Shown: positions 28,170 through 44,723, counted from the first letter of the stretch. The stretch is DNA of 64,000 nucleotides from Candidatus Latescibacterota bacterium (GCA_965261395.1 OZ253462.1:5120001-5184000); one strand, 5' to 3'. Program-made: numbers and translations. The notes: generated by a model from the sequence alone, not told the origin.

Positions 28170-28295
28170 CGCTACGAGGAATCGTATATTTTTCTCGCCA
28201 CTACGTCGCCGTCGGCCCGAGCTGTTTTGGTTGGGTCGGCGGCGACTTTATCACCGTGGCCGAAGCAAGAGAATGCAGCAGACTCTCGCCCCCAA

Positions 28296-29075: not shown

Positions 29076-30085
29076 CAGATCAAATTCTCTGTAATAGAGC
29101 CGACATACCAAGCCTTGAAGGTATTGCTGTAAAAGGTGTCCGAATTTACCCGCTTGGCGAAGTTCTTGTGCGTCACGTAGAGTACCATCGGTGTTGTGCT
29201 CGTATCAACAACCATACAATTCGCCTGGTTGTTGGTTATATAGGAGAGTTCTCGATGCCGCCATGCAGAGTAAGCTAGATGCTCAGAACGTGCATTCCCG
29301 AAGAATGTCAGGGTTGGATTGAGTGTATCAAGGAACTCATACGAACGTCCAGAATCACGGCCATGGTGAGGCGCAATTAGCAGATCGATATTATTCACGT
29401 AGTTCCGATAATTTTCAAGAATGTGTGCCCATGTGTCGTCGTGCGAGTCTCCACCGAAGACAATACGGTTATCTCCTATTCGATAAAGAAGCACGTAAGA
29501 GCAATCGTTGTAATCCTGGTCCGTCTTGTTCGCAGAATCTATAAGTTCCTCAGTTGGAGCAAGGATGTGAAGGCCATCGCCCCCAGAAGAGCCGTCGTCT
29601 CCAATGTTCCAATATTGTCCTTCTGCGCTAGCTAATAATGCTAGTCGCTTCGGGTCGTCGTCTGGTTTCGTATCCCGCAACTCCTTGTAGAACTTCCAGT
29701 CATCCTCGTTATATGGCGAGTTCTCCCATGACGACTTATCCATCTCTTTCTTGTTATCTGTATCCCAAAAATTGACAGGTCTAAACTCGTCAAATAAAGC
29801 CTTGATCCCATCCATGTGATCCATATCGGGGTGTGTCTGAATGTACCGGAAAATGCTGGTGATACTATGGTCCTGTAAGTAACTGATGGGATTAACCGGA
29901 TGTTTTTTCTGTTGAAAATTTCCACGGACACCCATCTCAAGCTGCGCCGTTTTGGCGGTCGATTCTTCAGTCAGTACGTCCGGTGGTTTTGCATTACAGA
30001 CATCGATCACCGTTATATGCCCAGAATTGTGGTTAATAACTGAACAGTCGCCTTGCTTAACGTTTAGGAAGTGAATTATCGCCAT
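29075..30085 (-). CDS. ComEC/Rec2-like MBL-fold metallo-hydrolase
   Basis: IHFLNVKQGDC, THPDMDHMDG, NDCSYVL, GGDS, APHHGRDSG. Confidence 0.85.
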   Translation of the reverse strand: MAIIHFLNVKQGDCSVINHNSGHITVIDVCNAKPPDVLTEESTAKTAQLEMGVRGNFQQKKHPVNPISYLQDHSITSIFRYIQTHPDMDHMDGIKALFDEFRPVNFWDTDNKKEMDKSSWENSPYNEDDWKFYKELRDTKPDDDPKRLALLASAEGQYWNIGDDGSSGGDGLHILAPTEELIDSANKTDQDYNDCSYVLLYRIGDNRIVFGGDSHDDTWAHILENYRNYVNNIDLLIAPHHGRDSGRSYEFLDTLNPTLTFFGNARSEHLAYSAWRHRELSYITNNQANCMVVDTSTTPMVLYVTHKNFAKRVNSDTFYSNTFKAWYVGSITENLI

Positions 30086-30803
30086 CCTCTACCTCCAAAT
30101 CTAGAGAAGCTTCTAAGAGGAAGTGAGCATAACGATCAGCAGTTATCCTAACTGCTCCCTCTGTAAACCACCGAATCCAGACTAACGTTAATCCAAAATT
30201 AATAGATCCGGGGACGATAGTTAGACCCGATAGATTTTCTGTTTTCCAATCGTCAAAGCCCATTATTAGACAGACTGAGAAAGATAAAGCAGCAATCGTT
30301 AGACCGTAAGGTTTCAAGGCGAATATGTTGCGCCGGAACCCATAGTCCCTTAGTTCTTCAAAAATTCGTGGGAAACGTTCTCTATCGCGTGTTCGGCGGC
30401 GGAGTTCATAGACGCAAGATTCATAATAGTCGTCTGCCGCCTGCGGATTCTGTTCCTGTTCTTCCCGAGAAGGAATGTAAAATCCAAGACTACGAAGCTT
30501 GTCGTGGATGCGGTTACGGGTAATCTGGTTGAATTCTGTATTGCCATGCCTAAGGAGACGCGTTGTTGGTGGCCCATCCCATTTATCCCATAGAGCACTT
30601 TCGCGCTTTTTCCCTAAGTCTCCACCTATTTGCTTGCATAGATAGGAAAGAGGTAAAAGAACGAAGGAAGCTAATCCCCCAAGTTGCCAATCAATCCCTT
30701 CCGGTAGAATAGAAAACAGAACCAACGCAACCGGCACAATAGTTATGTAGACTGGAAAAGCCCGTGCGTAAGCGAAGTAAGGATTTAATCTAAGTCCTTT
30801 CAT
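30057..30803 (-). CDS. Hypothetical 4-TM membrane protein (2TM-soluble domain-2TM)
   Basis: Two hydrophobic hairpins flanking a soluble region with WDGPPTTRLLR and DYGFRRN. RBS GGAGGA; overlaps the next gene by 29 nt. Confidence 0.75.
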   Translation of the reverse strand: MKGLRLNPYFAYARAFPVYITIVPVALVLFSILPEGIDWQLGGLASFVLLPLSYLCKQIGGDLGKKRESALWDKWDGPPTTRLLRHGNTEFNQITRNRIHDKLRSLGFYIPSREEQEQNPQAADDYYESCVYELRRRTRDRERFPRIFEELRDYGFRRNIFALKPYGLTIAALSFSVCLIMGFDDWKTENLSGLTIVPGSINFGLTLVWIRWFTEGAVRITADRYAHFLLEASLDLEVEDGDNSLPKR

Positions 30804-30854
30804 ACCATCCTCCTGATGGTTAGCGGATTTACTGTGCATAAGTGATTTTCATAC

Positions 30855-30927
30855 CATCGGCATCTTCACTATCGACCAATCATTCCTCCCGATCCGTATC
30901 TTCAAACACGTCTCAGGTTTCCTCATT
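30855..30927 (-). pseudogene. Decayed RelB/DinJ antitoxin C-terminal remnant (copy 2)
   Basis: Translates NEET*DVFEDTDREE*LVDSEDAD; 60/73 nt identical, ungapped, to 31963-32035. Confidence 0.65.
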
Positions 30928-30950
30928 GAGCGGCTTCCACGGCAAACTTC

Positions 30951-31057
30951 TCCCACACCTCAACATCCAACCCAACCCGTTTGCGCCCGGTCGGCGGCGA
31001 CCCGCTGGCTTAAGGTGGTGCTGCAAAGAAAGCCCGCCGCAGTCAGGGCGGTGGCTT
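30951..31057 (-). repeat. Diverged duplicate of the 3' end of the GNAT gene (32454-32559)
   Basis: Direct repeat of about 106 bp with 6 substitutions and a 1-nt insertion. Confidence 0.9.
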
Positions 31058-31187
31058 TGATTTCCGTAGCGCCACCTTTTCAGCCATCGTGCTCCCTTTA
31101 CGCGTCGAGATCGGTCATCGCTCCTAGGGTGCGTCTGGGAAATCCAATCTGGCGCGACCGCAAGCCGCGATCACCCCACGAGCCTAA

Positions 31188-31250
31188 ACCAGTGCGAACC
31201 AGATGCAATTCGGCTCCTTGGACGCGGTAAATCAAGAGCCAGTCCGGCTC
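31188..31250 (-). pseudogene. YafQ toxin C-terminal fragment
   Basis: EPDWLLIYRVQGAELHLVRTG is the YafQ signature. The terminal SHSxLF and the gene's middle are missing. Confidence 0.75.
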
Positions 31251-31258
31251 GGTCGCAG

Positions 31259-31291
31259 GCTCAACGTTCGGCTTGGACCAAACTTGCATCA
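31259..31291 (+). repeat. hicB 3' remnant (copy of 31788-31820)
   Basis: 30/33 nt identical; LNVRLGPNLH versus LNVRLGTNLH. Confidence 0.8.
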
Positions 31292-31312
31292 TGGTACTTC
31301 TTTTAGTACCGT
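31284..31312 (+). promoter_or_regulatory. hicAB promoter/operator
   Basis: TTGCAT-17bp-TACCGT overlapped by the palindrome GGTACT-N6-AGTACC (31293-31310), 10 nt before the hicA ATG. Confidence 0.6.
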
Positions 31313-31321
31313 TAAATCGTC

Positions 31322-31576
31322 ATGCGAGCGAAGCATCAGCGCACGCTGGAGAGTGTGCTCAAGACGCCGACGCCAGCAGCCATCCGGTGGACTGACATCG
31401 TCGCCATGCTGAAGGCAGCAGGCGTGGAGGTGTCTCAGCGTTCGGGGTCGCGCATTCTGCTGAAGAAGGGAGCAGAACGGATGGTAGTTCACCGACCCCA
31501 TCCAGAGCCAGAGACTGGTAGAGCGACGGTGCGCGACATCGTCGTGTTCCTCAAAGCCGTAGGAGTCAAGCCATGA
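31322..31576 (+). CDS. hicA: HicA toxin
   Basis: IRWTDIVAML..SGSR..HRPHP; ATGA overlap with hicB. Confidence 0.9.
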   Translation: MRAKHQRTLESVLKTPTPAAIRWTDIVAMLKAAGVEVSQRSGSRILLKKGAERMVVHRPHPEPETGRATVRDIVVFLKAVGVKP

Positions 31577-31905
31577 TTCAGTACAAAGGATACGCTGCCG
31601 AGGTCGAATTCGACGATTCCGTGGGATGTCTTCACGGACGGGTCGTCAACAGCGGTGCTTATTCGATTGCCACCTTTGAGGCAACTGACGTCGAGGGGAT
31701 TCGGCGCGAGTTCCATCGCTCCATCGACGAGTATCTCAAGTCCTGTGAGGAAGACGGCATTGAGCCGCGAAGGCCTTTCTCAGGCAAGCTCAACGTTCGG
31801 CTCGGGACAAACTTGCATCAGCGCGTTGCGCGCTCGGCGGCAGAGAGCGGTCTGAGCTTGAATAGCTGGATCACGCAAGCACTGGAGAAGAGCGTGTCCG
31901 AGTAA
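31573..31905 (+). CDS. hicB: HicB antitoxin
   Basis: YKGY..VEFD, FHRSIDEYL, PRRPFSGKLNVR, SLNSWI. Confidence 0.92.
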   Translation: MIQYKGYAAEVEFDDSVGCLHGRVVNSGAYSIATFEATDVEGIRREFHRSIDEYLKSCEEDGIEPRRPFSGKLNVRLGTNLHQRVARSAAESGLSLNSWITQALEKSVSE

Positions 31906-31922
31906 CCCTGTCAACAACCACC

Positions 31923-32035
31923 AGAGGGACGCCGCATCAAATATTGAGCTTCTGAAACATGTCATCGGCGTCTTCACATTCGACCAATTCTTCCCCTCGA
32001 TCCGTCTTTGCAAAAACGTCGCGGGTTTCCTCATT
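31923..32035 (-). pseudogene. RelB/DinJ antitoxin C-terminal remnant plus a 5-codon yafQ start stub
   Basis: NEETRDVFAKTDRGEELVECEDADDMFQKLNI* (32035-31937), then a TGATG-coupled MRRPS stub cut off by hicB. Confidence 0.7.
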
Positions 32036-32072
32036 CGTTCGTTATTCGCCGCAGGCGAAATAGGAGCCCATC

Positions 32073-32411
32073 CTACATTAACCGATCAGCCAACGCCTTT
32101 AATTGCCCCTCGTCAGCACTCGGCCCGGCCAACGCGATCTCCGCATTCCCCTCGCCTTTTATTACAACCGCAACCTGCTTCGACCGCACGCCCTCAACTA
32201 CGATCTCCCGCGCCGCCGCTCGCGCCTTTGCCCCGACGCCGCTGCCGAGAAAAACCTTCGCCGAAACCTCGCCCATCGAATCCTTGCGCGCCCCCTTTTC
32301 AAAATACTTTCGCTTCTTTCGCTCGGCGCTCCGCTTGACCACCACGTCCGCCACCCCTTCCAACACCATCAGCAAATCATCCGTATCCCGACCCGACAAA
32401 TAGAGTATCAT
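32073..32411 (-). CDS. Hypothetical protein (112 aa)
   Basis: ATG coupled (TGATG) to the GNAT stop. No family recognised. Confidence 0.5.
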   Translation of the reverse strand: MILYLSGRDTDDLLMVLEGVADVVVKRSAERKKRKYFEKGARKDSMGEVSAKVFLGSGVGAKARAAAREIVVEGVRSKQVAVVIKGEGNAEIALAGPSADEGQLKALADRLM

Positions 32412-33445
32412 CAGTGCGCCACCGATCCGTCGACGTGAAAACTCCCCTTGTTTTCCCACACCTCAACATCCACCCAACCCGTCTGCGCCCGGTCGGCGGC
32501 GACCCGCTGGTTTAAAGTGGCGCTGCAACGGAAGCCCGCCGCAGTCAGGGCGGTGGCTTGGGGATGCAAGCCAGCGTCGCAATAAGCCAAGCAGGTGTGG
32601 CTCGCTGGTATCTCTAGGGTCTGAAGCAAGGCGGCTCCCTCCTCCCAAAAAGCCGGGTGGCAATACAGGTCAACCAAGCAGGCATCGGGCCACAAAGGAT
32701 GCTCGGACCACATTGCCCATCCCACCACGGCGCGAGTCTCTTGTTGCACCAGAGCCAACGCGCGGGGCGGAAGGCCGCTTGCGCCGCGCTCCAAGCCGTC
32801 CTGCAACAACGGCAGTAAAGGCCCTTCGGTCGAGCGGCGGCCCCACACACCCAAGCCAGCGCCGCGCACGACGCCGGGAAAAGCACCCAAAAAGAGGGGA
32901 ATCGAAACGGGCCAGTGGAGCCAACCGACCGGCTCTATAGCCGTGGAACCTGGGGCGAAATACGCTCTATCGAATTCGTCTTGCGAGGCGCTGTAATACT
33001 CCATATAACCGCTTTCTAACTCGACCCCAGCAAAGCCGTTGACCTGATAAATGTGATAGGGCGGCGTATCGTAGCCCGTGCCCAAAAAGAGGGCTTGGCC
33101 GCCGCGCTGCCTAAAGTGGTCCATAAGGCAGGCCATTAGCTGCATGGCAGCGCCTTGGCGGCGGTCTTCGGGGCGGGTGTACACGTGGCCGAGCAGCCCC
33201 ACGCCGCGGTATTCGATGGTCATTATATTGGCAAAGGGATCGCCATCACGATGCAGCAGGTAAAAGAAGACGTCGAGGCCGGTCTGAGTGCGCAGCACCT
33301 GTTCGTTGCCCCAGCGCCAAGACGGGCCTTTGTGGCCCAAGAGGGTTTCGACGCGCTCGGCCCAGTCGAGATTAGGGCCTTGCACGACGCCGGCTTGTAT
33401 AGCTTCACCGGATTTGAGCGTGATGCGGTCTAATTGTTGGTACAT
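32411..33445 (-). CDS. GNAT-family acetyltransferase (two-domain)
   Basis: GHVYTRPEDRRQGAA, HIYQVNGF. Confidence 0.8.
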   Translation of the reverse strand: MYQQLDRITLKSGEAIQAGVVQGPNLDWAERVETLLGHKGPSWRWGNEQVLRTQTGLDVFFYLLHRDGDPFANIMTIEYRGVGLLGHVYTRPEDRRQGAAMQLMACLMDHFRQRGGQALFLGTGYDTPPYHIYQVNGFAGVELESGYMEYYSASQDEFDRAYFAPGSTAIEPVGWLHWPVSIPLFLGAFPGVVRGAGLGVWGRRSTEGPLLPLLQDGLERGASGLPPRALALVQQETRAVVGWAMWSEHPLWPDACLVDLYCHPAFWEEGAALLQTLEIPASHTCLAYCDAGLHPQATALTAAGFRCSATLNQRVAADRAQTGWVDVEVWENKGSFHVDGSVAH

Positions 33446-33475
33446 AGTTCGCCTTTGCGTAACGACGCTTGCGGC

Positions 33476-33500
33476 CTGATTTATTCCTTGAATAAATCAG
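33476..33500. terminator. Perfect 11-bp hairpin at the vapC stop
   Basis: CTGATTTATTC-CTT-GAATAAATCAG. Function (terminator or repeat element) is uncertain. Confidence 0.4.
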
Positions 33501-33943
33501 CTCCCCGTTTGTTCGTCCGATTCTCCGTTCTCCCCTTGCAGCACGGACGCCTCTGGTGAGAGCAGCAGCAATCCCGCCACGGATGCGAAGTGGCGATCCA
33601 TCGAGACCAGTCGCAAACCGTGCTCCATAGCCAGCGCCGCAATCCAGATGTCGTTCGTCGGGATCGGGGTTCCAGATCTCCTCAAGCCGTCGAGGATCTC
33701 GGCATAGAACTCGGCTGTATCCTCGCTGACGCCGCATATAGACACGCGCCGTGTATCGAGGAACTCGGCCAGTTCCTCGCGGTTTTTGCGTTCCTGTGTC
33801 CCGCCCTTGAAACCTGATAGCAGCTCCCCGATGCTGATCGAACTCAGCACGATTCGCGAGGCTCGCCGGAGCAGGGAGACGACCGCCGGATCTGCGCGCA
33901 TCGCGTGCGAGTAGATGTTGGTATCGATCAGAAATTCGTTCAC
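33497..33943 (-). CDS. vapC: VapC PIN-domain toxin
   Basis: LIDTNIYS, GEL..GF, PIPTNDIWIAA, DRHF. GTGA overlap with the antitoxin. Confidence 0.92.
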   Translation of the reverse strand: MNEFLIDTNIYSHAMRADPAVVSLLRRASRIVLSSISIGELLSGFKGGTQERKNREELAEFLDTRRVSICGVSEDTAEFYAEILDGLRRSGTPIPTNDIWIAALAMEHGLRLVSMDRHFASVAGLLLLSPEASVLQGENGESDEQTGS

Positions 33944-34212
33944 TGCCACAATTCCGAATCAATGCGCCGCTCGGAATCGATCTTCTGCTGAATCTGGGTG
34001 AACTCATCCTCGTCCCAGCGTCCGAACAGGTGATCCAAGTCGTGATGGACCTCGGTGAACCGACGGGATTTGTCCAATCCAAACTGCTTGCGGAGGGCGT
34101 CCAGCGCCGTCTGGTTCACGCTCTTTCCTTCCCGCTCGGCCACCTCCCTCAACTTGGCGGCAAGCTGGGGATCTAGTCCACGTAGGGTCATGCTTTTCAG
34201 AACATCGGCCAA
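33940..34212 (-). CDS. vapB: RHH antitoxin (VapB/FitA-like)
   Basis: MTLRGLDPQLAAKLREVAEREGKSVNQ..DLDHLFGRW..IDSELW. TTG start after AAGGAGGT. Confidence 0.82.
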   Translation of the reverse strand: MADVLKSMTLRGLDPQLAAKLREVAEREGKSVNQTALDALRKQFGLDKSRRFTEVHHDLDHLFGRWDEDEFTQIQQKIDSERRIDSELWQ

Positions 34213-34251
34213 GGCGTACCTCCTTGAAATGCAACGAATATGTGATGGCGA

Positions 34252-34276
34252 TATGATTTCATTATATGAGATCATA
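34252..34276. promoter_or_regulatory. vapBC operator palindrome
   Basis: TATGATTTCA-N5-TGAGATCATA (one mismatch) just upstream of the antitoxin RBS. Confidence 0.6.
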
Positions 34277-34374
34277 CTTTACTAATCAAGGGATAGACCG
34301 ACAGTCTCAGCTTCCCGAGTAGATATCGGGCCTAATGAGCGTTCCTTCTTTCGCGACCGATTGAGATCGGCTCG

Positions 34375-35334
34375 CTAGCCTCCGACCCGCCCGCCATACA
34401 GATCCCGCACCCGACTCACCACCACGGCCAACAAGATGATCGACCCCAAAAACGCCTGCTCGTAATAGATGTTGGCCTCCAGCATCACCAAGCCGTTCTT
34501 GATGAGGACGATGATGACCGCCCCCAGTAAAAGGCCCAGCGCCGAGATGCGCCCGCCAGCCAACCCAGTCCCGCCGACAATAGCCACCGCAAAGCTGGTG
34601 ATCAGCCAGTCCTTACCCGTCGCCGGTTGCGCCGAGCCCATCCGCGAGACCCACAACACCGCGGCTAGCGCACCCACTCCGCCCGACAGCACGTGCGACA
34701 ACAAAATCATCCGATCGGTATTGATCCCCGCCAGCCGCGCCGCCTCCTGATTCCCCCCGGTCGCCAACAACCGCCGCCCAAAGACCGTATGCCGGAATGC
34801 GTAGTGCGTCGCCAGCAGCACCAGCCCCATCGCCCAGAACAAATTCGACAGTCCCAAAAACTTCTGCCGTCCCAAGAAAGTGAACTCCCGGGGAATGTCC
34901 GTGTAGGCGTAGCCTTCGGAAAACCCATGCACCAGCCCTGTAAAGACAAAAAGCGTCGCCAGCGTGGCGATAAAGGAATTGATCTGCAACCGCGTGATGA
35001 TGATCCCATTGACCCACCCAGCCACGCCGCCGATCCCCAGCGCCACCAGCGCCGCCAACCACCCCGGCAACCCCAACACCTGGATGCAGTACCCAGTGGT
35101 GATGGTCGCCAAGCCGCCGACGGCCCCCACGGATAGATTCATCCCCCCGGCGACCAGCACCACCGCCTGAGCCAGCGCCACCAACACCGAAAAAGCGACG
35201 ATCCGGGAGACGTTGAAGAGGTTGTACGCCGACAGAAAGCTCTCCGAGCTAAGCGCACATCCCACAAACAGCAACCCCGCCGACAAGGCAATTCCGGCAT
35301 CGTTGTGCCGCATGAGTTTGCGTAGATATTCCAT
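34375..35334 (-). CDS. CUT2 sugar ABC transporter permease (RbsC-like)
   Basis: GGMNLSVG, INSFIATLAT, GGNQEAARLAGI, VGGTGLAGGR. Confidence 0.92.
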   Translation of the reverse strand: MEYLRKLMRHNDAGIALSAGLLFVGCALSSESFLSAYNLFNVSRIVAFSVLVALAQAVVLVAGGMNLSVGAVGGLATITTGYCIQVLGLPGWLAALVALGIGGVAGWVNGIIITRLQINSFIATLATLFVFTGLVHGFSEGYAYTDIPREFTFLGRQKFLGLSNLFWAMGLVLLATHYAFRHTVFGRRLLATGGNQEAARLAGINTDRMILLSHVLSGGVGALAAVLWVSRMGSAQPATGKDWLITSFAVAIVGGTGLAGGRISALGLLLGAVIIVLIKNGLVMLEANIYYEQAFLGSIILLAVVVSRVRDLYGGRVGG

Positions 35335-35336
35335 AG

Positions 35337-35415
35337 TCAGTTTAGATGGTGGCCGATGGAGCGGCTTATCTCGTCGTAGCTCAATCCCCGCTCGTGGATC
35401 TCGGCGACTTCGTGG
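35337..35415 (-). repeat. 79-bp duplicate of the ABC ATPase 3' end (copy of 42198-42276)
   Basis: 76/79 identical including the stop codon; encodes HEVAEIHERGLSYDEISRSIGHHLN*. Confidence 0.95.
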
Positions 35416-35466: not shown

Positions 35467-36768
35467 CTACCCAATCACAAAGCTGTCATCAGCATACCGT
35501 GATAGCTGCTCTACTTCGTCGCAAAACTTTTCGTAGTCTCTCAGGGCTATAGGCCGGTAGTGAGCTAGTTCAGTACGGATCCGCCACGAACAATTCACTA
35601 AGCGTTGCCATCTTCGCTCTGTACTCAACTCTCGGCGCTGCAGTAAAGATTTCAGATGCCCCCACTGACAGGCAAAAGGCGTATTGATTACTTCCTGAAG
35701 CTCTCTATCTGTTTCCGGTTTTTGCCACCTATGAGGCCAATCCTGTCCATAAGACCGGTTTAGGTGGTCACACAAAGCCAACCGTGTTTCGTCAATTTGG
35801 GGTAGGAGAAATCCAGCCTGACCTCGCCACAAGCGGTGGTCTAAGGCTTCTTGTCGATTCAACAGAGCCAAGACCGCGCTGTGGCATTCCAAACCGTATT
35901 CCGGAGTCCAATGCACCATCCCCTGGGCCCAGGCCTGGTACAAAGTAGCTGACAACGGCCAGCTCTCCAGCCAAGATGTCGCGTCCTGGGGAAGGTTATG
36001 CACTGGCCAAGCCTCCAACTCGGCCTGATTCCAGCCGCGGTCCTGAGCAAAGGCCCGCAGCACGCACGCCAATTCGGCTCCAGTATGATGCACCTTAGCC
36101 CACAGATAATCGCCCAAGTCCAAGTCAGAACCCGCAATGGCCGGAATCGTATGCTCTTTCCAGCGGCTCAAGGGAGCAGCATCCTGCTCGGAGGCCAATT
36201 GACACAACAGCCGCATTTCCAAGGTCGTGGGGATGCCCCGCCAGACCTGGATAGACAGAAACACATCAGTTAGGGGAGGTGGATGAGGGACCTTCGATGC
36301 TTGGGCCAGCAGACACAGCGCCGGGGGGATCTCGGGGCCATCTTCGTCAGTGGAGTGCCTGCTATGGCATACCTGAGCCCACTGCACCATAAATTGCAGC
36401 CATTGAACTCGGGCTTCTTCAGCCAGTCTATCAAAACCATCGAGAAACAGAACTTCAGGCAAGCCTGCTTGTTTTAAGAGATTCCCCACCGTGCGTGGTG
36501 TAGTGGAAGCACCCCAATCCACTCCCAGAGCTTGGCCTAAAGCCGCCGCTGGAGTTTCGGCGTCTAACTGGGATATGAAGATCTCGTGGATATGCAAGTG
36601 CAAGTGTCCGAGACCATCCCACAAAGCCGACCGTAGCAGGCTTGGATCAACTCCTTCGGGCAGCAAGCCCAACACACTGTGGCCGCGCCGCAATTCCTCC
36701 AGTAGCCGGTTCAGTAGCTGCTGGGCAGTGGGCATCTGCATGAGGGAGGTAGCCAGTCCCAAGCTCAT
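35467..36768 (-). CDS. Hypothetical protein: degenerate P-loop-like N-terminus and C-terminal HEPN-like Rx4H motif
   Basis: ATGA-coupled to the giant ATPase. Contains RGHSVLGLLP, VLFLDGFD and C-terminal RIRTELAH. Confidence 0.65.
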   Translation of the reverse strand: MSLGLATSLMQMPTAQQLLNRLLEELRRGHSVLGLLPEGVDPSLLRSALWDGLGHLHLHIHEIFISQLDAETPAAALGQALGVDWGASTTPRTVGNLLKQAGLPEVLFLDGFDRLAEEARVQWLQFMVQWAQVCHSRHSTDEDGPEIPPALCLLAQASKVPHPPPLTDVFLSIQVWRGIPTTLEMRLLCQLASEQDAAPLSRWKEHTIPAIAGSDLDLGDYLWAKVHHTGAELACVLRAFAQDRGWNQAELEAWPVHNLPQDATSWLESWPLSATLYQAWAQGMVHWTPEYGLECHSAVLALLNRQEALDHRLWRGQAGFLLPQIDETRLALCDHLNRSYGQDWPHRWQKPETDRELQEVINTPFACQWGHLKSLLQRRELSTERRWQRLVNCSWRIRTELAHYRPIALRDYEKFCDEVEQLSRYADDSFVIG

Positions 36769-39700
36769 AGAAGGCCAGCGACTCGACCCAAGACGGGCTC
36801 GGCGCTATACTCCCCGTCCCTATTTCCAATACACCCCAGTCGGCGCAAAAATTCCACAGCCGCCTTGCAGCCCTCTGGAGTGAGAGGCGGATCCCCTTCA
36901 ATCAAATCCCCCAAAGTCTCTAAATCCGCATCTGAGACTTTGTCGCACTCAACTAGCGTCTTTAATACTCGGAAAGGCTCCGCCTGAGCATCCAGCCCGA
37001 CCTGCTGTAACAACTTATAACCTAACTCCGACCTTGGCTGGTCCATCTCCTCGACCAGCATTTCTGCATAAGATCGAGGATCATCATCGACGGCGCACCG
37101 GCGTAAAAGGTCGTCCAGCAAGAAAGGCCATCCCCCAGTAGCTTTCAGCACCTTCTGGCAGACCTCGGACGAATCCAGCTTACCGGCTTGGTTCAACCGC
37201 TGCTGAATTCCCACTTCGTCCCAGCGACGCAGATAAATTGGGTCAGCCCGGTTTTCCAGATCGGTCCGCCGGTCCGCAGGCAACTTCAGCCAAGCCCAAA
37301 CAGCCTCTGGATTGAGAAAGAAAACCACCTGCAGGGGCCGTCTTCGCCTTTGGTTAAAGTCTTTGCACTTCTCCAATACTTTCCAGACGCATTGGGCCAT
37401 ATCGCCCCCTGTGCCCCTGAGCCGGCCATAGGCCAATACCTGCTCGATCCCTTGTTGCTTTTGGGCGTGGGAATCCAACCACGCACAGGTCCGATTGGCT
37501 TGGGTCAATTCTTGGGCAGGGATCTCACTTCCCCGCTTTAAGGCTTGGTCTAGCAACTCCAGCCCCAATGCTTGGGAGCCAAAGATTAAACTCACGCCGG
37601 ACGACCGAGTTTGTTGCAAACGGCCTTCCTGCACTAGCGTTAAGGGGCTGTACAGACGGTTCTCGGCATCTAGCAACAAATGCTGACTGTCGGATTGGGA
37701 TTGGGTCGGCTGAGATTTATCAGACAGCTCTAGCAAACGGTTCTCTATATCCTTCTCGGTACCCATGAGACGGACCAGATTGGGACTGCGCAACAGGTAC
37801 CGGTTTTCTAAATTGCGTACCAATATGCCCAGACCAACCATTTCTCCCAGCAACCCTCTCAAACTTTCGGTATCGACTTCTTTGAAGCCTTGAGACCACC
37901 ACTCTTGCGCTAGTTTGAGGAGTTCGGCCACGCTAAATGGGCGGACATAGCTATCGCGCGTCTCTTTTTGCTCACAGATCATGGCCCAAGCGATGCACTG
38001 ATACCGGGGGTCCAGTGCCAAGGTCCAGTCGAGCCGTTCCCGAATGACCTGCCGAGCTGATGGGGAGCGATATACCGCCTCCACATCATCCGATCTCACT
38101 TCATAGGGCGGTCCCGACGAGGGCCTTTTGGCTTGGAGCCGACGCACGAGTTCATGGCAGAAGTACTGTATCAAACCCGGATGGTAATTGGTGTAGGACA
38201 GGACTTTGAGCACCGTGGTCTCATCGACGAACCGATAGCCCAATGCCCTTAGGGGATCCCGCACCAACTGCCGGGCCGGCCTAGCTTCGAGGGGCCCCAC
38301 CAGTAGGTTCTGGCCGAAATGGGCCAGAGGCTGGTTCGCGATATTGTTAAAACGCTGAACGTCGTGCAGACCAGTAAAGACCACCTTGAAGCGCGATTGA
38401 GTATCCTGCATCAAGGTTCGCAAGCCGTTGACCACTTGGAAACCTTCCCGAGCATCGGCGTTGAGAAAGTGGTCGGCTTCGTCAAACATTACTAGAACTT
38501 TCCGTTGGGGAGACTCAGTGATCGCGTTCTTGATGTGTTTGATGATATTGTCAGGTTGAGTCGCCTTTATACTGTCTTTTATCAGCGAGAGTTTCTTAAA
38601 ACCATCGCGCAACTTGATCCACAACTGAACGGGCTGTTCGCCTGTAAGGGGATCTCCCACTAGCTTGATGTCCTCAACCCAAGCGAATTGCTCGCTGTCG
38701 GGCTGGTGAAATTCGCGCTCCACTTGGCGCAACAGTGCGGATTTTCCCAACTGTCGCCCGCCGAATACGATGCAGCTACCCTCGTTTTGTAGTTGACGGA
38801 CCATCGCGTCGCGGCCGTAGTATATTTCAGGCGGTACATTTCCCGCTTGGAACGGCGTATAGGGATTGAGGGCAGAATAGGGCAAGCTACAACGCAGGAA
38901 AGCTGGAAGGCGGGTGTCGTCAGACTTGGCCAAAAATACCAGCAGGATTTCGTCTAGTACCACTATAGCCAATTCCCGTTCTCTGGCCTGGGCGGCTATG
39001 TCGCGTCGCCGCCGGTCGGTCAATCGCCCAAGAAAAAAAATAATAACCGTCTTAGTATCTAGTCCTAAGTCGTGCAAAAACGCTCCGATGGAGGCAGCTC
39101 CAGGTTGTTCCCATAAACACACCACATTGTAGCAGCCGCTGGCTTGCGAGCCCAACTGCGGGATGGGCCGAGCCAAGTCGCTGGCCGAGGCATCCACCTG
39201 ACAGTAGAGCCCATCTTGGCCGGACCTCTTGAGGCGCACGACTGATTCTCCCTCCGGCAGATGAAAACCGAGGTAAGCCAGCAGGACTGGGATATGCCGA
39301 TGGGCTGCCTTTGACTGGCCCTGTTGGCGTTTGAGTTGGTGCCAAGCTTTAAGTGCCTTGGCTGCCTCGTCCCGGCGTGCTTGGGGCAATGTGCCAAACG
39401 GCACACCTTCCCACGTTTGGCCTTGCTCAATCATACCGGCCAATTGATTGACATTCCCCAAGCTGCTAAGCCCCGATTCGATGCTAGGAAAAGCCTCTTG
39501 GAACTCCTTAAAGATGTCTCGCTCGTCAGGTGGGACAAACCACTCGCTCTCGCCTCGGAGGATTTCCCGCAAACGGACCAAGCCTTCTTCCACTACCATA
39601 GTATCGCGCTGATCGAAAGCTCTTTGAATAAAGGCTTCCACGGCGTCAAGTTGATCCGCTTGGGACGATTGCGCTAGATCTTGCCGCATATCCGTCCATT

Positions 39701-42050
39701 GATCCTCCAACTCTTGCAGTCGGTCTGCGAGCTTTTGTTCCAATTGCTGTCCAATATCATTTAACCGCCCGAACAGAGGTCCGAAGCACAAAGGATCTTC
39801 AACAGCCACTAGTTCCAATTCAGTAGTGAGACCGGCGCGCTCTTCTTCAAAGAGCAACCCATCCACCACCCTCTGTTCGATAGCCCCCTTCACTTCGTTG
39901 ACTCGGTCCGCTAGCGCCGCCCGGACACCCTTGAGATTATCGTCGTTTAGGTCTTCGATCTCTCGGCGATCTTCATCGTTCTCCAACGCATTCCACAATA
40001 CGTCGGTGAAGCGAAAATCCTGGCTTTCAATCCGCAGGATGCAAGCCTCGCGGGGAGAGCGTCCCACAGCCAGAGATTGACGCAAGGCCTCAGCAATATT
40101 GGCCCTATAGGCCTCTTCAGGATGGCCCTCTTCGTCGAGGGGGATTTCGGGCATCCACAACAGGCGGCGGGCTAAAGCCTCCTCCAGTGAGCCATTTTCG
40201 CGCTTCATCCATACCTCGAGGTCTTCAATATCGGGCTGCTCCTCTATGCCTAGCATACCTGTTACTTGGCCTATGGCCCGCTGCAGAACACGGCCCAAAG
40301 CGGCTTTTTCCTGGGGTTGGTCCTGCGCCTGCATTTGCTCGAGTTCGGCATTGACGGCGGGGAGGACATCCTGTACTTGGCGGCGCAAATCCTTTACATG
40401 ATCGCTCCACCAGTCGCCCTTGTAATGGGGGTCCTGTTTCTGCGCAATCAGGGAACACCAGCGGTGGGCCAGACCGACGGCCTCTTCGACACTGCGCACC
40501 AATTGATCACGAGGAACCCCTGTGATTGGTCTGGATGGGCGGGCAGATGTCCGCTCTTGGTCAATCTGGCGGATGAGTTCTACAATCTGCTTGCGCTCCT
40601 TGAAACCGCTCATGCACTGCCGGACCTGATCGACTTGGTCGGCCTGATTTTCAATTACCGGAGTGAGTAGGCGGGTCAAGTCGCCATCTTGGTCCACCAA
40701 GCGGTGCAGTACGTTTGTCGCCCTTAGCATTTTTAGCTTACGGTCCTGATTATTCTTTAAGAGGCGGAGGGCTTGCTCAATGGTTTCTTCGATGCCCTTC
40801 TCGCGAGTTTCCATGCCTTCGGCCCCCTTTAGATCTTCGGCCCGCAAGGGATAGCCCGCTGACGCAAAGGTGCGGACGGCATCGGCAAGCGTACCCAGCG
40901 CGGGATTGATTTCATCCCTTTGAGGGAGCCAGCCGACCAAACCGGTGCACTGCGGGGCAACCAAACTAGGGCGTAGGGCCGCAGCCAACCCCAGCAACCG
41001 CTCGGAAGTAGTATTTTGGGGAGCCCACTCCGAAGCAATTTGCAGGATATCGAAGACCAAACTGTCGGTATCGTTTTTCAACCAGCGCGACCCCTGAAGC
41101 ACGGCAAGCAATTCGGGGGCGACCAGTACGTCGCGGCCCGCTACTTTCAAGGAGCTAGCTAGCCAGTAGGCTCCGGCCCAATCCCCTTCGGCCAAGAGGC
41201 TCCACCCCAACGATACCCAGTGTTCATCGGAATCGTCTTCTTGCAACAGGAGTGCCACATCCCGGACCGAGCGCAAGGGCAGCGGCTTTCCGTCAGGGAG
41301 CTGAGGTTCAGGTGGGGTAGTCTGGATGTGCGTTGGCTCGTGCTCTTCAGACTGGGGTAAGGGTTCAGGCTTGGCTTCTTCCTCGGGAGAGCTGGACTCC
41401 TCTTGGGGAACCTCTGCAGATGGGCTGACGTCTTCTTCGGCTTTTTGCTCTTGATCGGAATCAGGGGAATCACTAGAAGGGCCTTGTCCGGGACTAGTCG
41501 GTTCCGGGGAAGGTTGATCACCCTCTTCGGTATCTTCATCCAAAATCTGTGGAGGCTCCGGGGTGGTCGCGGAAAAATCTTGGTCGAGTTGTTTCAACAG
41601 TGCGCTGATCTCAGCTTCCACGGCATCCAAGTCCGTTCGATGCTTTCTGGCTTCCTGGTAATTTTGGGGGTGTTGCTGGGTCAAAGTTTGGCGTTGGTCC
41701 AGTTGTGCCAGCAGGTTCTCCACCGTCTTCGTCCGCTCGGGAACCCACTTGATGGGACAGCGGGTCGCTTGCCAGTGAGCTAGATCAGAGTTATCGAAAT
41801 TAAAAAACGCGAGAGTTTCCTCGTGATTTTTCCGCAATTGATCGAGGGTCTGCTGGAGTTGGAACCGCCCGGCCTCTTCTCGTTCTTGGCATTTCTGCTC
41901 AGCTATGAGCTGGACTTGGTCGATAAACCCTTGGACTTGAACTCCTTCCCATTCTGGAGCATCGGAAGGCCACTGACTCAATTCCTCAATCAAACTAGTC
42001 CACTGAGTATCTTGGAGGCTCTCCGTACTCTGTGTCTTTTCGTCGGACAT
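36765..42050 (-). CDS. Giant STAND-like P-loop ATPase (1761 aa)
   Basis: NPY..YYGR, Walker A GGRQLGKS, Walker B VLVMFDEAD, YHPGLIQ helical motif. Long helical/coiled-coil N-terminus. RBS GGAGGA. Confidence 0.8.
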   Translation of the reverse strand: MSDEKTQSTESLQDTQWTSLIEELSQWPSDAPEWEGVQVQGFIDQVQLIAEQKCQEREEAGRFQLQQTLDQLRKNHEETLAFFNFDNSDLAHWQATRCPIKWVPERTKTVENLLAQLDQRQTLTQQHPQNYQEARKHRTDLDAVEAEISALLKQLDQDFSATTPEPPQILDEDTEEGDQPSPEPTSPGQGPSSDSPDSDQEQKAEEDVSPSAEVPQEESSSPEEEAKPEPLPQSEEHEPTHIQTTPPEPQLPDGKPLPLRSVRDVALLLQEDDSDEHWVSLGWSLLAEGDWAGAYWLASSLKVAGRDVLVAPELLAVLQGSRWLKNDTDSLVFDILQIASEWAPQNTTSERLLGLAAALRPSLVAPQCTGLVGWLPQRDEINPALGTLADAVRTFASAGYPLRAEDLKGAEGMETREKGIEETIEQALRLLKNNQDRKLKMLRATNVLHRLVDQDGDLTRLLTPVIENQADQVDQVRQCMSGFKERKQIVELIRQIDQERTSARPSRPITGVPRDQLVRSVEEAVGLAHRWCSLIAQKQDPHYKGDWWSDHVKDLRRQVQDVLPAVNAELEQMQAQDQPQEKAALGRVLQRAIGQVTGMLGIEEQPDIEDLEVWMKRENGSLEEALARRLLWMPEIPLDEEGHPEEAYRANIAEALRQSLAVGRSPREACILRIESQDFRFTDVLWNALENDEDRREIEDLNDDNLKGVRAALADRVNEVKGAIEQRVVDGLLFEEERAGLTTELELVAVEDPLCFGPLFGRLNDIGQQLEQKLADRLQELEDQWTDMRQDLAQSSQADQLDAVEAFIQRAFDQRDTMVVEEGLVRLREILRGESEWFVPPDERDIFKEFQEAFPSIESGLSSLGNVNQLAGMIEQGQTWEGVPFGTLPQARRDEAAKALKAWHQLKRQQGQSKAAHRHIPVLLAYLGFHLPEGESVVRLKRSGQDGLYCQVDASASDLARPIPQLGSQASGCYNVVCLWEQPGAASIGAFLHDLGLDTKTVIIFFLGRLTDRRRRDIAAQARERELAIVVLDEILLVFLAKSDDTRLPAFLRCSLPYSALNPYTPFQAGNVPPEIYYGRDAMVRQLQNEGSCIVFGGRQLGKSALLRQVEREFHQPDSEQFAWVEDIKLVGDPLTGEQPVQLWIKLRDGFKKLSLIKDSIKATQPDNIIKHIKNAITESPQRKVLVMFDEADHFLNADAREGFQVVNGLRTLMQDTQSRFKVVFTGLHDVQRFNNIANQPLAHFGQNLLVGPLEARPARQLVRDPLRALGYRFVDETTVLKVLSYTNYHPGLIQYFCHELVRRLQAKRPSSGPPYEVRSDDVEAVYRSPSARQVIRERLDWTLALDPRYQCIAWAMICEQKETRDSYVRPFSVAELLKLAQEWWSQGFKEVDTESLRGLLGEMVGLGILVRNLENRYLLRSPNLVRLMGTEKDIENRLLELSDKSQPTQSQSDSQHLLLDAENRLYSPLTLVQEGRLQQTRSSGVSLIFGSQALGLELLDQALKRGSEIPAQELTQANRTCAWLDSHAQKQQGIEQVLAYGRLRGTGGDMAQCVWKVLEKCKDFNQRRRRPLQVVFFLNPEAVWAWLKLPADRRTDLENRADPIYLRRWDEVGIQQRLNQAGKLDSSEVCQKVLKATGGWPFLLDDLLRRCAVDDDPRSYAEMLVEEMDQPRSELGYKLLQQVGLDAQAEPFRVLKTLVECDKVSDADLETLGDLIEGDPPLTPEGCKAAVEFLRRLGCIGNRDGEYSAEPVLGRVAGLL

Positions 42051-42197
42051 ATCATATCCTCAATTCTATGTCTATTTGGTTTTCGGGTTGGAGTATAAAA
42101 AGAAATGGTATTTGCCCGTAAGATAGTCTGTCTGGTTTCGGGGATGTTCCCTCGACCCGGAGAGCTTCCTGCGGGTATACAATCTCTTCCATTTGGC

Positions 42198-43706
42198 TCA
42201 ATTCAGATGGTGGCCGATGGAGCGGCTTATCTCGTCGTAGCTCAACCCCCGCTCGTGGATCTCGGCGACTTCGTGGACGATCTGCTTTTCCTTAAAGACG
42301 AGGATCCTTCCCGCCAAGCCGATGATCTCCGGCATGTCCGACGAGATCAAAATGATGGCCTTGCCTTCTTTGGCCGCCAAATCCCACAGCAAGTGGTGGA
42401 TCTGTGCCTTGGCTTGGATATCCACCCCGACGGTCGGCTCATCGACGATCAGGATATCGCACTCGGCCGCCAGCCACTTGCCCAAGCTAACTTTCTGCTG
42501 ATTGCCGCCGCTGAGGTGGTTTACCTCCTGCTCTAGGCCGGTGGTGCGAATATCCAGCGCCGCGACCAACTCCTGCGCGGCTTTGGTCTCCGCCCGGGCG
42601 TCGATCCGGCGGGTGAACTTGCCGACGATCCGCTCCCATATCGTAATGCCGAGATTGGTCCGCACGGCTGAGTCCAGCAGCAGGCCCTCTTCTTTGCGGT
42701 TTTCGGTTACGTAACCCATGCTGTATTTGTACAGGCTGTCGGCCACCGAGCCGATCCGCGCTTTGGCTCCGTTGATATAGACGGCCCCGCGCTCGGCCTG
42801 CTCAGCCCCCACCAGCAGCCGCGCCAGCTCGGTGCGCCCGGCCCCCACCAAGCCGTACAAGCCCAAAATCTCGCCAGCGTAGAGCGAAAAGCTCACGTCG
42901 TGTGCTCGGTCCGCTGCGTACAGCCCCTCGACCCTGAGCACCTCCCGCTCCCGATCCACTGCTGGCCTGCCAAACGAAGTCGTCTCCGCGCGACGGCCGA
43001 TCATCATCTCAATAAGCTCGGCGCGCGGCAGCCCAGCCAATTCCCTCGTGCCCACGTGTCGCCCGTCCCGCAATACGCTGACTTGGTCGGCGATCTGATA
43101 GACCTCGTCGAACTTGTGCGAGACAAAGACGATGGCCACGCCCGTCTCCTGCAACTGACGCAAAATGCCAAAGAGGCGGGCCGCTTCGTGCTCAGTAAGC
43201 GACGACGTCGGCTCGTCTAACAGCAGAACCCGTGCCTCGGCCGACAGCACCCGAGCGATCTGCACGAGCTGTTTGTGGGCCGCGCTTAAATCGCCAATGG
43301 GCGCTTGCGGGTCAACGTCCAGCCCGATCCGCGCCATCGCGGCCCGCGCTTGGTCGCCGAGCCGTGGCCAGTCGAGGCGGCCCCACCGGCTGAAGGCGTC
43401 TAGCTTGTCGAGCATGATATTCTCGGCGACGCTGGCCTCAGCCACTACTTGGATCTCCTGATGGACGAGGCCAATGCCTTGGTCGAGGCAGTCGCGACAG
43501 TTGCGCACGCGCAGCGACGCGCCGTTGAAGAGCATCCGCCCGGCGTCGGGCTGGTATATTCCGGTGACAATTTTGAGCAGGGTGCTCTTGCCAGCGCCGT
43601 TTTCGCCAACTAGGGCGTGGATCTGGCCCGGCTGGAACGAGAGCGACACGTCGTCCAGTGCTCGGACGCCGGGGAAACGCTTGCTGATGGATTGCAGTTC
43701 GAGCAC
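42198..43706 (-). CDS. CUT2 sugar ABC transporter ATP-binding protein (RbsA-like)
   Basis: GENGAGKST, LLLDEPT, LSGGNQQKV, DEPTVGVD. Confidence 0.95.
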   Translation of the reverse strand: MLELQSISKRFPGVRALDDVSLSFQPGQIHALVGENGAGKSTLLKIVTGIYQPDAGRMLFNGASLRVRNCRDCLDQGIGLVHQEIQVVAEASVAENIMLDKLDAFSRWGRLDWPRLGDQARAAMARIGLDVDPQAPIGDLSAAHKQLVQIARVLSAEARVLLLDEPTSSLTEHEAARLFGILRQLQETGVAIVFVSHKFDEVYQIADQVSVLRDGRHVGTRELAGLPRAELIEMMIGRRAETTSFGRPAVDREREVLRVEGLYAADRAHDVSFSLYAGEILGLYGLVGAGRTELARLLVGAEQAERGAVYINGAKARIGSVADSLYKYSMGYVTENRKEEGLLLDSAVRTNLGITIWERIVGKFTRRIDARAETKAAQELVAALDIRTTGLEQEVNHLSGGNQQKVSLGKWLAAECDILIVDEPTVGVDIQAKAQIHHLLWDLAAKEGKAIILISSDMPEIIGLAGRILVFKEKQIVHEVAEIHERGLSYDEISRSIGHHLN

Positions 43707-43709
43707 GGA

Positions 43710-44723
43710 TCAGCGCGGCGGGCTAAGATATTTAGTCTCTAACTCGCCCATAATCCGCGTGGTGATGGCCATGATTTCGTCCTCGAAGGTATCGACGTTA
43801 TCCTTGGTCACCAGCACTGTGCCCGAGTTGACGAAGTAGTGGTCGGGATTGGCCTGCCAGCCGTCGAGCAAGTAGCTCAACAGCGCGCACGTGATGTAGC
43901 CGTGGCCATAGGGGTTTTGCGAGATAGTCGCGTCGATGGCCCCCTCGCCGATCGCGTCGAGTACCACCGGGTCCGTGTCGATGCCGACGAAGTGGATGCG
44001 CTTGTTATCCGGGGTTTGGTTCCACTCCGACAGAATGGTCGCCGCGGCCACGGTCGGCGTGTACCCCGTGCAAATCACGCCGTCGATCTCCTCGATCCGT
44101 GCCGAGAGCGCGCCCTGGATTTTGGCGGTGCTGGTCTCAATCGACTCCATGCCGGCAATTTCCTGGATGATCTGGACCGCTGGGTATTTGGCCACCGCCG
44201 CCTCGACGCCTTCTTTGCGCAGGATGGTGTTGGGGTCTTCGACCAATTCGAGCACGTTGAGGATGCTGCCTTTGCCGCCCATAAAGCCGATCAGCGCCTC
44301 GGTGGCCTCCATCGCCGCCTGTTTTACATCGGTCGCCACGCAAAATGAAGCGGGCGTCGGCAGCGTCGTCGGCGCTCCATAGCTGACGACATAGGCCCCG
44401 TGTTGCACCAATTCCTCGTAGAGTCCGTTGGCGGCGCTGGCGTCGGCTGGGTAGAGCGAGAAGGCTTTGTAGCCTTGGGCGGCCAGTGGCTCGACATTGG
44501 CGTTTTCGTTGTCCTGGGTCCAAGTCTGGCCGATCTGGCGCTTGATCTTGGTGCCGGTGTCGCGCTCGTAGCCGATCACCCCTTTTTGTACCTGTTCGAC
44601 ATAGGGATGCACCATCAGGGCATACCAGACGATTTTTTTCTCCGTGGGCTTGTCGCCAGATTCGCCAGACCCGCCGCACCCGACGGCAACGAGCGCGGCG
44701 ATCCAAATTAGTAGCAAACGCAT
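43710..44723 (-). CDS. Sugar ABC transporter substrate-binding lipoprotein
   Basis: Lipobox AVGC, ATISQNPYGHGY, VTKDNVD. Confidence 0.9.
   Translation of the reverse strand: MRLLLIWIAALVAVGCGGSGESGDKPTEKKIVWYALMVHPYVEQVQKGVIGYERDTGTKIKRQIGQTWTQDNENANVEPLAAQGYKAFSLYPADASAANGLYEELVQHGAYVVSYGAPTTLPTPASFCVATDVKQAAMEATEALIGFMGGKGSILNVLELVEDPNTILRKEGVEAAVAKYPAVQIIQEIAGMESIETSTAKIQGALSARIEEIDGVICTGYTPTVAAATILSEWNQTPDNKRIHFVGIDTDPVVLDAIGEGAIDATISQNPYGHGYITCALLSYLLDGWQANPDHYFVNSGTVLVTKDNVDTFEDEIMAITTRIMGELETKYLSPPR

Follow-up and report, generated by a model that had tools for sequence, protein, structure and literature searches.

The stretch of DNA described here (hereafter the window) comprises 64,000 nucleotides (nt) from a Candidatus Latescibacterota bacterium (GCA_965261395.1 OZ253462.1:5120001-5184000), and positions are counted from its first letter. 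It carries two overlapping genes on the minus strand, which encode a giant ATPase, P0001, and a smaller partner protein, P0002. A preliminary description of this DNA, made from the sequence, had proposed that the two genes form a conflict system in which a sensor ATPase activates an RNase. The results presented below suggest that the pair is probably a small mobile two-gene module directed against invaders (phages or mobile elements), consisting of a sensor ATPase and an effector in which an inactive STAND domain is joined to a HEPN domain.

The island and its transporter operon

The genes of the pair and the features that surround them are as follows.

36765 to 42050, minus strand: gene 1, the 1761-amino-acid (aa) giant ATPase P0001 (open reading frame (ORF) and translation)
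35467 to 36768, minus strand: gene 2, the 433-aa partner P0002 (ORF and translation)
42198 to 42276: left direct repeat, the original 3' end of the gene for the ABC ATPase
35337 to 35415: right direct repeat, a second copy of the final 79 nt of the gene for the ABC ATPase, which restores the TGA/ATG junction with the permease gene
43710 to 44723, minus strand: periplasmic sugar-binding protein (Pfam Peripla_BP_4)
42198 to 43706, minus strand: sugar-type two-domain ABC ATPase (Pfam ABC_tran)
34375 to 35334, minus strand: ABC permease (Pfam BPD_transp_2), with its native ATG at 35332-35334

The start of gene 2 overlaps the stop of gene 1 by 4 nt (ATGA), so that the coordinates, lengths and coupling of the two ORFs are exactly those given in the preliminary description. 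All neighbours (binding protein, ABC ATPase, pair and permease) lie on one strand, which places the pair inside the transporter operon. The two 79-nt direct repeats are 96% identical with a spacing of 6861 nt, and the P0001 and P0002 genes are the sole cargo between them (a 6.86-kb insert), as had been stated earlier for this island. The right repeat ends in TGA and the ATG of the permease gene follows two bases on; both transporter genes are therefore left intact by the insert. The native ATG at this position is supported by the permease orthologues, which align from residue ~34 of the longer ORF.

The ABC ATPase and the binding protein (42198-44723) are 91-94% identical to their orthologues in the same genus. 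In three genomes of that genus (G091, G081 and G085), the site is empty, and the genes for the binding protein, the ATPase and the permease are contiguous. In another genome of the genus (G083), the same site is occupied by a pair with a 22-nt flanking repeat; its two proteins are only 65% and 70% identical to those of the window, whereas the flanking proteins are 92-94% identical. A third version of the pair, 64% and 68% identical to that of the window, was observed in a Latescibacterota metagenome-assembled genome (L004). The GC content is 0.54-0.58 inside the island versus ~0.60-0.62 around it. The P0001-P0002 island is a discrete mobile insert with presence/absence polymorphism, and the locus offers a clean natural example of a putative defence 'islet' that has entered an operon, in which the duplicated 3' end of the target keeps both flanking genes intact. 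A transposon or an integrase was considered as the mover and set aside, as no integrase or transposase gene was found between the repeats; no tRNA gene was found in the window.

Two further features of these loci were observed. In L004:3750-11973, the diverged pair occupies another position in the same operon: on one side is the binding-protein gene, on the other a truncated ABC ATPase gene of which only residues 268-502 are left, and the permease gene is gone. In the window, an imperfect inverted repeat of 55 nt (75% complementary) links positions 35215-35269, in the 5' coding part of the permease gene, with positions 42135-42189, which are the first bases inside the left end of the island beyond the direct repeat. 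This inverted repeat may have been left behind by the insertion or may be due to chance.

The giant ATPase P0001

P0001 contains one intact AAA+ module of the ORC/Cdc6-STAND-like type, which is followed by an eroded AAA-like module. Its parts, in the order of the protein, are listed below.

41271 to 42050, minus strand: N-terminal region (residues 1-150) and acidic Pro/Ser/Glu-rich linker (~151-260) (translation)
39270 to 41270, minus strand: long helical region (residues ~261-927), candidate sensor
38955 to 39269, minus strand: alpha/beta domain (residues ~928-1032) ahead of the ATPase (AlphaFold2 (AF2) secondary structure)
37758 to 38858, minus strand: active AAA+ module with helical lid and winged helix (residues 1065-1431)
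38739 to 38762, minus strand: Walker A motif, GGRQLGKS (residues 1097-1104), invariant in 30 of 30 aligned sequences
38472 to 38486, minus strand: Walker B motif, FDEAD (residues 1189-1193), invariant in 30 of 30 aligned sequences
36768 to 37682, minus strand: second, eroded AAA-like module and C-terminal helical, winged-helix-like end (residues ~1457-1761) (Foldseek, hhalign and AF2)

The AF2 model of residues 901 to 1761 (mean predicted local distance difference test score (pLDDT) = 78.8) takes the shape of an alpha/beta domain, an AAA+ core with lid and winged helix, a beta-alpha-beta module at ~1457-1620, and a helical end. The Walker A and B motifs are intact, as the preliminary description had noted, and Pfam assigns AAA_22 to residues 1088-1232. 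Similar to STAND and ORC/Cdc6-like ATPases, P0001 has an NTPase core that is followed first by a helical lid and then by a winged-helix domain. When residues 1065-1431 were compared with known structures by VIA-align, the closest match was the archaeal Walker ATPase 2qen (score = 19.2, number of aligned residues = 320, rmsd = 4.5), followed by the archaeal AAA+ ATPase 2fna (17.0), plant NLRs (14.7-15.8), ORC/Cdc6 (14-15), TnsC and MuB (13-14) and BrxC (13.2). A motif of the hhGRExE type upstream of the P-loop is reportedly a mark of STAND ATPases, a proposal that is said to go back to Leipe et al. in 2004. P0001 has YYGRDAM (residues 1077-1083) upstream of the P-loop, in which the G and the R are invariant, while the second acidic position of hhGRExE is not kept.

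The claim of a second, degenerate NTPase-like module was borne out. Approximately 680 columns of the P0001 model align to tandem-AAA+ proteins (p97 and NSF) in Foldseek with E ~1e-7, and the degenerate GVSLIFGSQALGLELL of the second module aligns to the strand and loop of the active Walker A motif (hhalign E 0.059, 25 columns); these two matches indicate that the second module is real. In addition, TGGW (residues 1638-1641) is invariant or nearly so in the 30-sequence alignment.

Upstream of the ATPase, the Pro/Ser/Glu-rich stretch at ~150-260, which corresponds to the acidic Pro-rich linker of the preliminary description, is visible in the translation. The alpha/beta domain that had been placed ahead of the ATPase is also present in the AF2 model at ~928-1032, and the NPY with which it was said to end is located at residues 1062-1064. 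Among six Latescibacterota orthologues of P0001, sequence identity is 0.8-0.9 in the ATPase core, 0.77-0.84 in the alpha/beta domain, which is thus well conserved, 0.55-0.68 over residues 400-950, and 0.42-0.53 in the acidic linker, the least conserved part. No match was obtained for the N-terminal 900 residues in Pfam, and an Atlas search with residues 255-1070 was uninformative (best score = 0.80); no domain-level fold match was obtained for the alpha/beta domain. Two strongly conserved stretches within residues 928-1064, ARPIPQxGSQA and LPYxALNPYTPFQAGxVPPE, the latter just before the AAA+ core, are modeled with a pLDDT of <50. They may be interface or ligand-binding loops.

The C-terminal 862 aa of P0001 have more than 722 homologues, all of which are unnamed or annotated as 'hypothetical', and most of these proteins are 1,700-2,100 aa long. 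An 861-aa fragment of P0001 matches Pfam nSTAND1 (PF20703) with 29.7 bits (E 6.9e-7; gathering threshold 27.1), and only 4 of 30 relatives match this family at E ≤ 0.01; 4 of the 30 match nSTAND6 instead, and full-length P0001 has no nSTAND1 match at E ≤ 1. A sequence-profile search of the PDB with P0001 gave one chance-level match. PADLOC and NCBIfam scans of both P0001 and P0002 returned noise only (lowest E values 0.031 and 1.4e-4, of which the second falls well short of the cutoff). The P0001/P0002 family would escape current defence finders, because PADLOC and NCBIfam have no match for it and Pfam recognizes nothing beyond generic AAA-type domains and a borderline nSTAND1.

The partner P0002 and its HEPN-like domain

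P0002 consists of two domains, with the motif of interest in the second.

35851 to 36768, minus strand: inactive AAA+/STAND-like domain (residues 1-306), without a Walker A motif
35470 to 35850, minus strand: HEPN-like helical domain (residues 307-433)
35560 to 35577, minus strand: R398-T-E-L-A-H403 (Rx4H) motif

A word search found 88 homologues of P0002, and a profile search found 1445 cluster representatives at E ≤ 0.001, 920 of them at E ≤ 1e-10; the best 150 of these 1445 relatives are mostly ~405-445 aa long. P0002 itself has no family match in Pfam, PADLOC or NCBIfam. In its AF2 model (pLDDT = 89.1), residues 1-306 adopt a fold whose structure matches are Cdc6 (7jgr_G; score = 11.7, number of aligned residues = 223), 2qen (11.4), TnsC (11.0), Avs5 (10.4) and NLRs (~10), and fold searches with the whole protein are filled by AAA+ matches over the same residues. 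The position of the P-loop reads LLPEGV, so that this module cannot bind NTP in the usual way. The preliminary description had called VLFLDGFD of P0002 Walker-B-like; it does lie on a strand of the AAA+-like fold, and its conservation is only moderate. Intact ATPase motifs are present in gene 1 only, and the pair as a whole has a single competent ATPase site, its two other AAA-like modules being eroded. An origin of P0002 as a recent duplicate of the C-terminal module of P0001 was considered and is unsupported, since P0002 showed no signal in hhalign with either AAA module of P0001 (E 0.17-0.26).

The C-terminal domain of P0002 is modeled as four helices (residues 306-340, 354-362, 379-402 and 409-425) with a pLDDT of ~94-97 over most of the domain and of 67 for residues 421-430. 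Arg398 and His403 of the Rx4H motif, RTELAH in the preliminary description, are invariant in 34 of 34 aligned sequences and in 214 of 214 sequences of a larger family set, which was limited to members of 380-470 aa by dropping shorter and longer ones. The family consensus is IRNELAHYRP (RNxLAH), so that the homologues do carry the RNxxAH form that had been raised for them, and among the 214 the Arg is followed by N in 189 sequences, by T in 21 (the window's among them), by S in 2 and by R in 1. In the AF2 model, Arg398 is located in the last turn of the third helix (residues 379-402), and His403 is located at the start of the loop to the helix of residues 409-425. In the sections of Anantharaman et al. 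(2013, PMC3710099) used here, the Rx4-6H motif of HEPN domains is placed where the third helix ends and the following loop begins, and the position of the motif in P0002 is the same. The P0002 family also resembles the Swt1/Abi2 clade of HEPN domains described there in having the RNxxAH form of Rx4-6H where helix 3 ends, and that clade is associated with AAA+/STAND ATPases and restriction-modification (RM) loci, as far as those sections of PMC3710099 go. Unlike in this clade, no member of the P0002 family exceeds the Pfam threshold of HEPN_Swt1, and a HEPN domain at the C terminus of an inactive AAA+ fold is not among the arrangements in the same sections.

The links between the C terminus of P0002 and the Swt1-like HEPN family are weak but consistent. 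Sub-threshold matches to Pfam HEPN_Swt1 were observed in 6 of 34 P0002 relatives (best E 0.013). In the Atlas search, which is based on a protein language model, the top match of residues 300-433 is a 'Swt1-like HEPN' cluster (score = 0.93, 191 of 256 features shared). The C-terminal profile of the P0002 family was then compared by hhalign with 19 reference HEPN_Swt1 domains, which were taken from Latescibacterota genomes and are all over the Pfam threshold; the alignment covers 97 columns (E 1.5e-4, probability 52%) with the RNxxAH motifs in register, while 20 column-shuffled templates gave E 0.057-0.74 and the N-terminal half of the P0002 family gave E 0.65. Judging from these profile and model comparisons, it is likely that the C-terminal domain of P0002 is a HEPN domain.

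Two ORFs of the window's own genome that lie outside the window, of ~1113-1116 aa, have an N-terminal HEPN_Swt1 domain over the Pfam threshold (G000:C1:5677699-5678040 and 3906066-3906407; E ~2e-36). By their length and by the position of the HEPN domain, they resemble the Ava_2192-type proteins of bacteriophage exclusion (BREX)-related systems, in which HEPN is combined with a DUF499 ATPase.

Distribution, context and proposed function

P0001 and P0002 are strictly conserved as a pair. Directly downstream of the ATPase gene, and usually overlapping it, the partner gene is present at all five Latescibacterota genome loci (5/5) and at 73 of 80 metagenome loci, in which the ATPase is 31-54% identical to P0001. 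Six of the 7 metagenome loci without a partner have ≤407 nt of sequence after the ATPase gene, and the seventh (L088) has a truncated ATPase gene. On plasmids, tblastn of P0002 gave no match, and the partners were located only via the ATPase and then compared by hhalign with the P0002 family: in Thiodictyon, the ATPase has 2038 aa and the partner 384 aa (E 2.6e-15); in Azospirillum, the ATPase has >3150 aa ('RNaseH domain') and the partner 525 aa (E 1.8e-8); and on the Agrobacterium pTi, the ATPase has 1970 aa and the partner 529 aa (E 2.5e-4). The Rx4H motif is kept in all three plasmid partners. A scan of viral contigs gave five loci of 23-30% identity that cover the ATPase part only.

The family is large, spans many phyla and is patchy among relatives. 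Of 151 genomes sampled from the phylum, 9 contain the partner; for the window's genus, 21 further genomes were searched and the partner was found in 3 of them. The names seen among the relatives are Latescibacterota, Gemmatimonadetes, Acidobacteria, Armatimonadetes, Chloroflexi and NC10, together with plasmids of Proteobacteria and Actinomycetota.

Several departures from the usual layout were observed among the relatives. The giant ATPases of L122:1-11142 (Azospirillum oryzae plasmid) and L124:1518-9971 (Agrobacterium pTi) have a swapped N-terminal region, and their partners (525-529 aa) have ~150-180 extra residues after the Rx4H motif; one of these two distant ATPases is the 'RNaseH domain-containing' protein of >3150 aa, and the other has a WYL-domain gene before it and is followed by ThiF and patatin genes. 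In L005:3480-10004, the giant ATPase gene is split into ORFs of 876 and 892 aa by ~1.2 kb that contains a 297-aa ORF without a Pfam match, and this interruption may be an insertion element.

The pair usually sits among known defence genes and is autonomous in most loci. When 293 neighbouring ORFs were clustered, no conserved third gene was found, which answers the earlier question of a usual third member; the most recurrent neighbour families are a PLD-SNF2 helicase (7 loci), PglZ (4 loci) and a DUF1156 methylase (3 loci). At the other loci, Pfam and PADLOC annotate among the neighbours of the pair type I RM, GmrSD/HEC-06, HEC-01A/B, a DRT-associated gene, TerY, DndH-like and LmuB-like proteins, PDC-M33A, TIR-NB-ARC, CHAT, Fic, PglZ and the PLD-SNF2 helicase. 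The window adds to this defence context a PDC-M48B pair and HicAB, in a variable region that adjoins the island. Among the 33 loci with at least 3 kb of downstream sequence, a methylase, helicase, PglZ or type I RM gene adjoins the pair in 10, and no such gene does so in 23; a minority of relatives lie in BREX-related operons, where they stand at the position of the ATPase and are flanked by a DUF1156 methylase on one side and by a PLD-SNF2 helicase or PglZ on the other. The majority of 23 loci speaks against the pair being a truncated piece of a larger system.

We propose the following mechanism for the pair. P0001 would act as an ORC/Cdc6-STAND-like AAA+ sensor and switch, and P0002, as an inactive AAA+/STAND-like domain that carries a Swt1/Abi2-type HEPN RNase, would be the effector. 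The two proteins would assemble via their AAA+-like modules, one active and two eroded, as do hetero-oligomers of the ORC/clamp-loader type or BrxC with BrxB. A cue from the invader might be sensed by the variable helical N-terminal region of P0001 or by the inactive modules, and would cause an ATP-dependent conformational change or oligomerization. As a rule, HEPN RNases require two motifs within a single composite site, and the rearrangement would pair two HEPN domains to form a composite RNase site of this kind; the resulting cleavage of RNA may then arrest the infected cell or destroy the transcripts of the invader. Every testable part of the preliminary interpretation held, and from the features described above we infer the hetero-oligomerization, the RNase activity and the defence role of the pair. 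A complex prediction with residues 1075-1761 of P0001 and residues 1-310 of P0002 gave a score of 0.00 in two runs and is given no weight on the question of binding.

In Avs, a single polypeptide combines an N-terminal effector with a C-terminal sensor of the TPR type. Unlike Avs, the window pair has its effector on a separate inactive-STAND protein, no repeat sensor was found in it, and there is no PADLOC match to Avs; the pair is not an Avs system. The closest description is that of the nSTAND2 operons (Kaur, Iyer, Burroughs, Aravind, eLife 2021, PMC8195603). In the portions of that paper used here, the operon is mobile and consists of two genes that both have NTPase modules of the STAND type, one active and one with eroded NTP-binding motifs; the eroded module carries a fused effector, which in most cases is a HEPN RNase or GT4, and the two products are predicted to form a hetero-multimer. 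Similarly, P0001 and P0002 are adjacent, each has a STAND-type module, and one of these is eroded. The nSTAND2 partners given in those portions (places 3-62 of 104) are all from Proteobacteria and have 530-768 aa, with nSTAND2, wHTH and TPRs followed by HEPN or GT4. On the other hand, P0002 has 433 aa and a HEPN-like end, departs from the wHTH, TPR and HEPN/GT4 architecture in that no TPR was detected in P0002 or 34 relatives, and is paired with an ATPase of ~1760-2100 aa. Five accessions of plasmid relatives are absent from the supplements of PMC8195603, and the comparison of the family with nSTAND2 was made at the level of published descriptions. The two-gene theme was thus predicted in 2021 with the nSTAND2 operons but never tested, and the P0001/P0002 family is not covered by current defence databases. 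No experimental study of such a pair of an ATPase and an inactive-STAND-HEPN protein was found in the literature searched, in a search that was not exhaustive.

The pair also resembles BrxC/BrxB of BREX and the DUF499/inactive STAND (iSTAND) ('Hma') systems (bioRxiv 10.1101/2025.10.09.681413), in which, in the part of that preprint considered, an ORC/Cdc6-STAND-like AAA+ ATPase is accompanied by a Walker-less iSTAND protein. DUF499 ATPases often carry an N-terminal Swt1-type HEPN domain, as described in parts of PMC3710099 and of the same preprint. As far as these accounts extend, the HEPN domain of BREX-related systems is N-terminal on the ATPase itself, the iSTAND protein has no effector, and the systems are based on methylation and have three to six genes. 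In contrast, the window pair, like its relatives in most loci, stands alone, has no DUF499, BrxC or BrxB family match, and has no methylase, PglZ or helicase in its island. A tentative reading, to which we give a limited probability, is that the family (~1,400 clusters at 50% identity) is the free-living ATPase-iSTAND sensor core of BREX and BREX-related systems, with a HEPN RNase directly coupled to it in place of methylation and restriction. If so, the family would be an evolutionary and mechanistic bridge from RM-like BREX to abortive infection of the NLR/Avs type, and the insertions in DUF1156-methylase/PLD-helicase/PglZ operons would represent a core that is swapped between the two modes. 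For the question of how BREX-type ATPase/iSTAND cores sense invaders, a minimal version of only two genes, whose RNase output could be assayed with ease, would offer a tractable model.

The similarity to BrxC/BrxB and DUF499/iSTAND also allows the view that the pair is not autonomous and is the ATPase and iSTAND core of a BREX-related, methylation-based restriction system, of which the window copy would be an orphan without methylase, helicase and PglZ. We regard this as unlikely, because such genes are absent in the 23 loci mentioned above, because the window island is bounded by direct repeats and has two genes only, both intact and conserved, and because neither protein matches the DUF499 or BrxC families.

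It is more doubtful that the pair is chiefly a selfish addiction module similar to toxin-antitoxin (TA) systems, in which a HEPN toxin would be restrained by the giant ATPase and persistence would result from postsegregational killing instead of invader sensing. HEPN toxins are common in TA modules in the sources drawn on, the two genes are tightly coupled, plasmid relatives are located next to RelE/RelB and zeta-toxin genes, and the region of the island also holds HicAB. However, a 1761-aa multidomain ATPase with invariant catalytic motifs far exceeds the need for toxin neutralization, and both the order of the genes and the presence of an AAA+-like docking domain on the 'toxin' are in keeping with recruitment of an effector, although the two roles are not exclusive.

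The C-terminal domain of P0002 might, finally, not be a nuclease and might bind RNA or a nucleotide by its R/H patch as a sensor, with another output or a housekeeping role; the sub-threshold HEPN evidence, the inactive RNA-binding HEPN versions of eukaryotic Swt1 (in the sections cited of Anantharaman 2013, PMC3710099), the lack of any other recognizable effector domain and the alpha/beta domain of P0001 without a fold assignment would be consistent with this, but it appears improbable given that the invariance of R and H over 214 sequences is what is expected of a catalytic dyad, and the presence/absence polymorphism inside the operon and the patchiness argue against housekeeping.

The reading of the pair as a mobile anti-invader module is the one that we favour, and the following points weigh against it. 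Family scans for TPR, WD40 and LRR repeats found none in the pair, which agrees with the lack of a C-terminal TPR sensor in the preliminary description, and a sensor was not recognized. For the HEPN assignment, a sequence-profile search of the PDB with the P0002 family gave 0 matches, no P0002 relative reaches the 27.5 bits of Pfam HEPN_Swt1, and the Arg of the window's motif is followed by T and not by the usual N. The 10 of 33 loci that adjoin a methylase, helicase, PglZ or type I RM gene suggest that the pair may sometimes work within a larger RM-like system. No PADLOC model matches the pair, so that defence is argued from association only. A scan for promoters and terminators gave nothing above shuffled sequences.

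A second variable region of the window lies at 28172-34300, between the permease gene and an M16 peptidase gene (25320-28169), with a GC content of 0.46-0.49 at 28-31 kb. It contains two MBL-fold ORFs that match the PADLOC candidate PDC-M48B (E 3e-48 and 1e-36), as well as HicA/HicB, an RHH antitoxin-like ORF and a 344-aa GNAT protein. At the corresponding position in G091 and G083, one or two small ORFs only are present.

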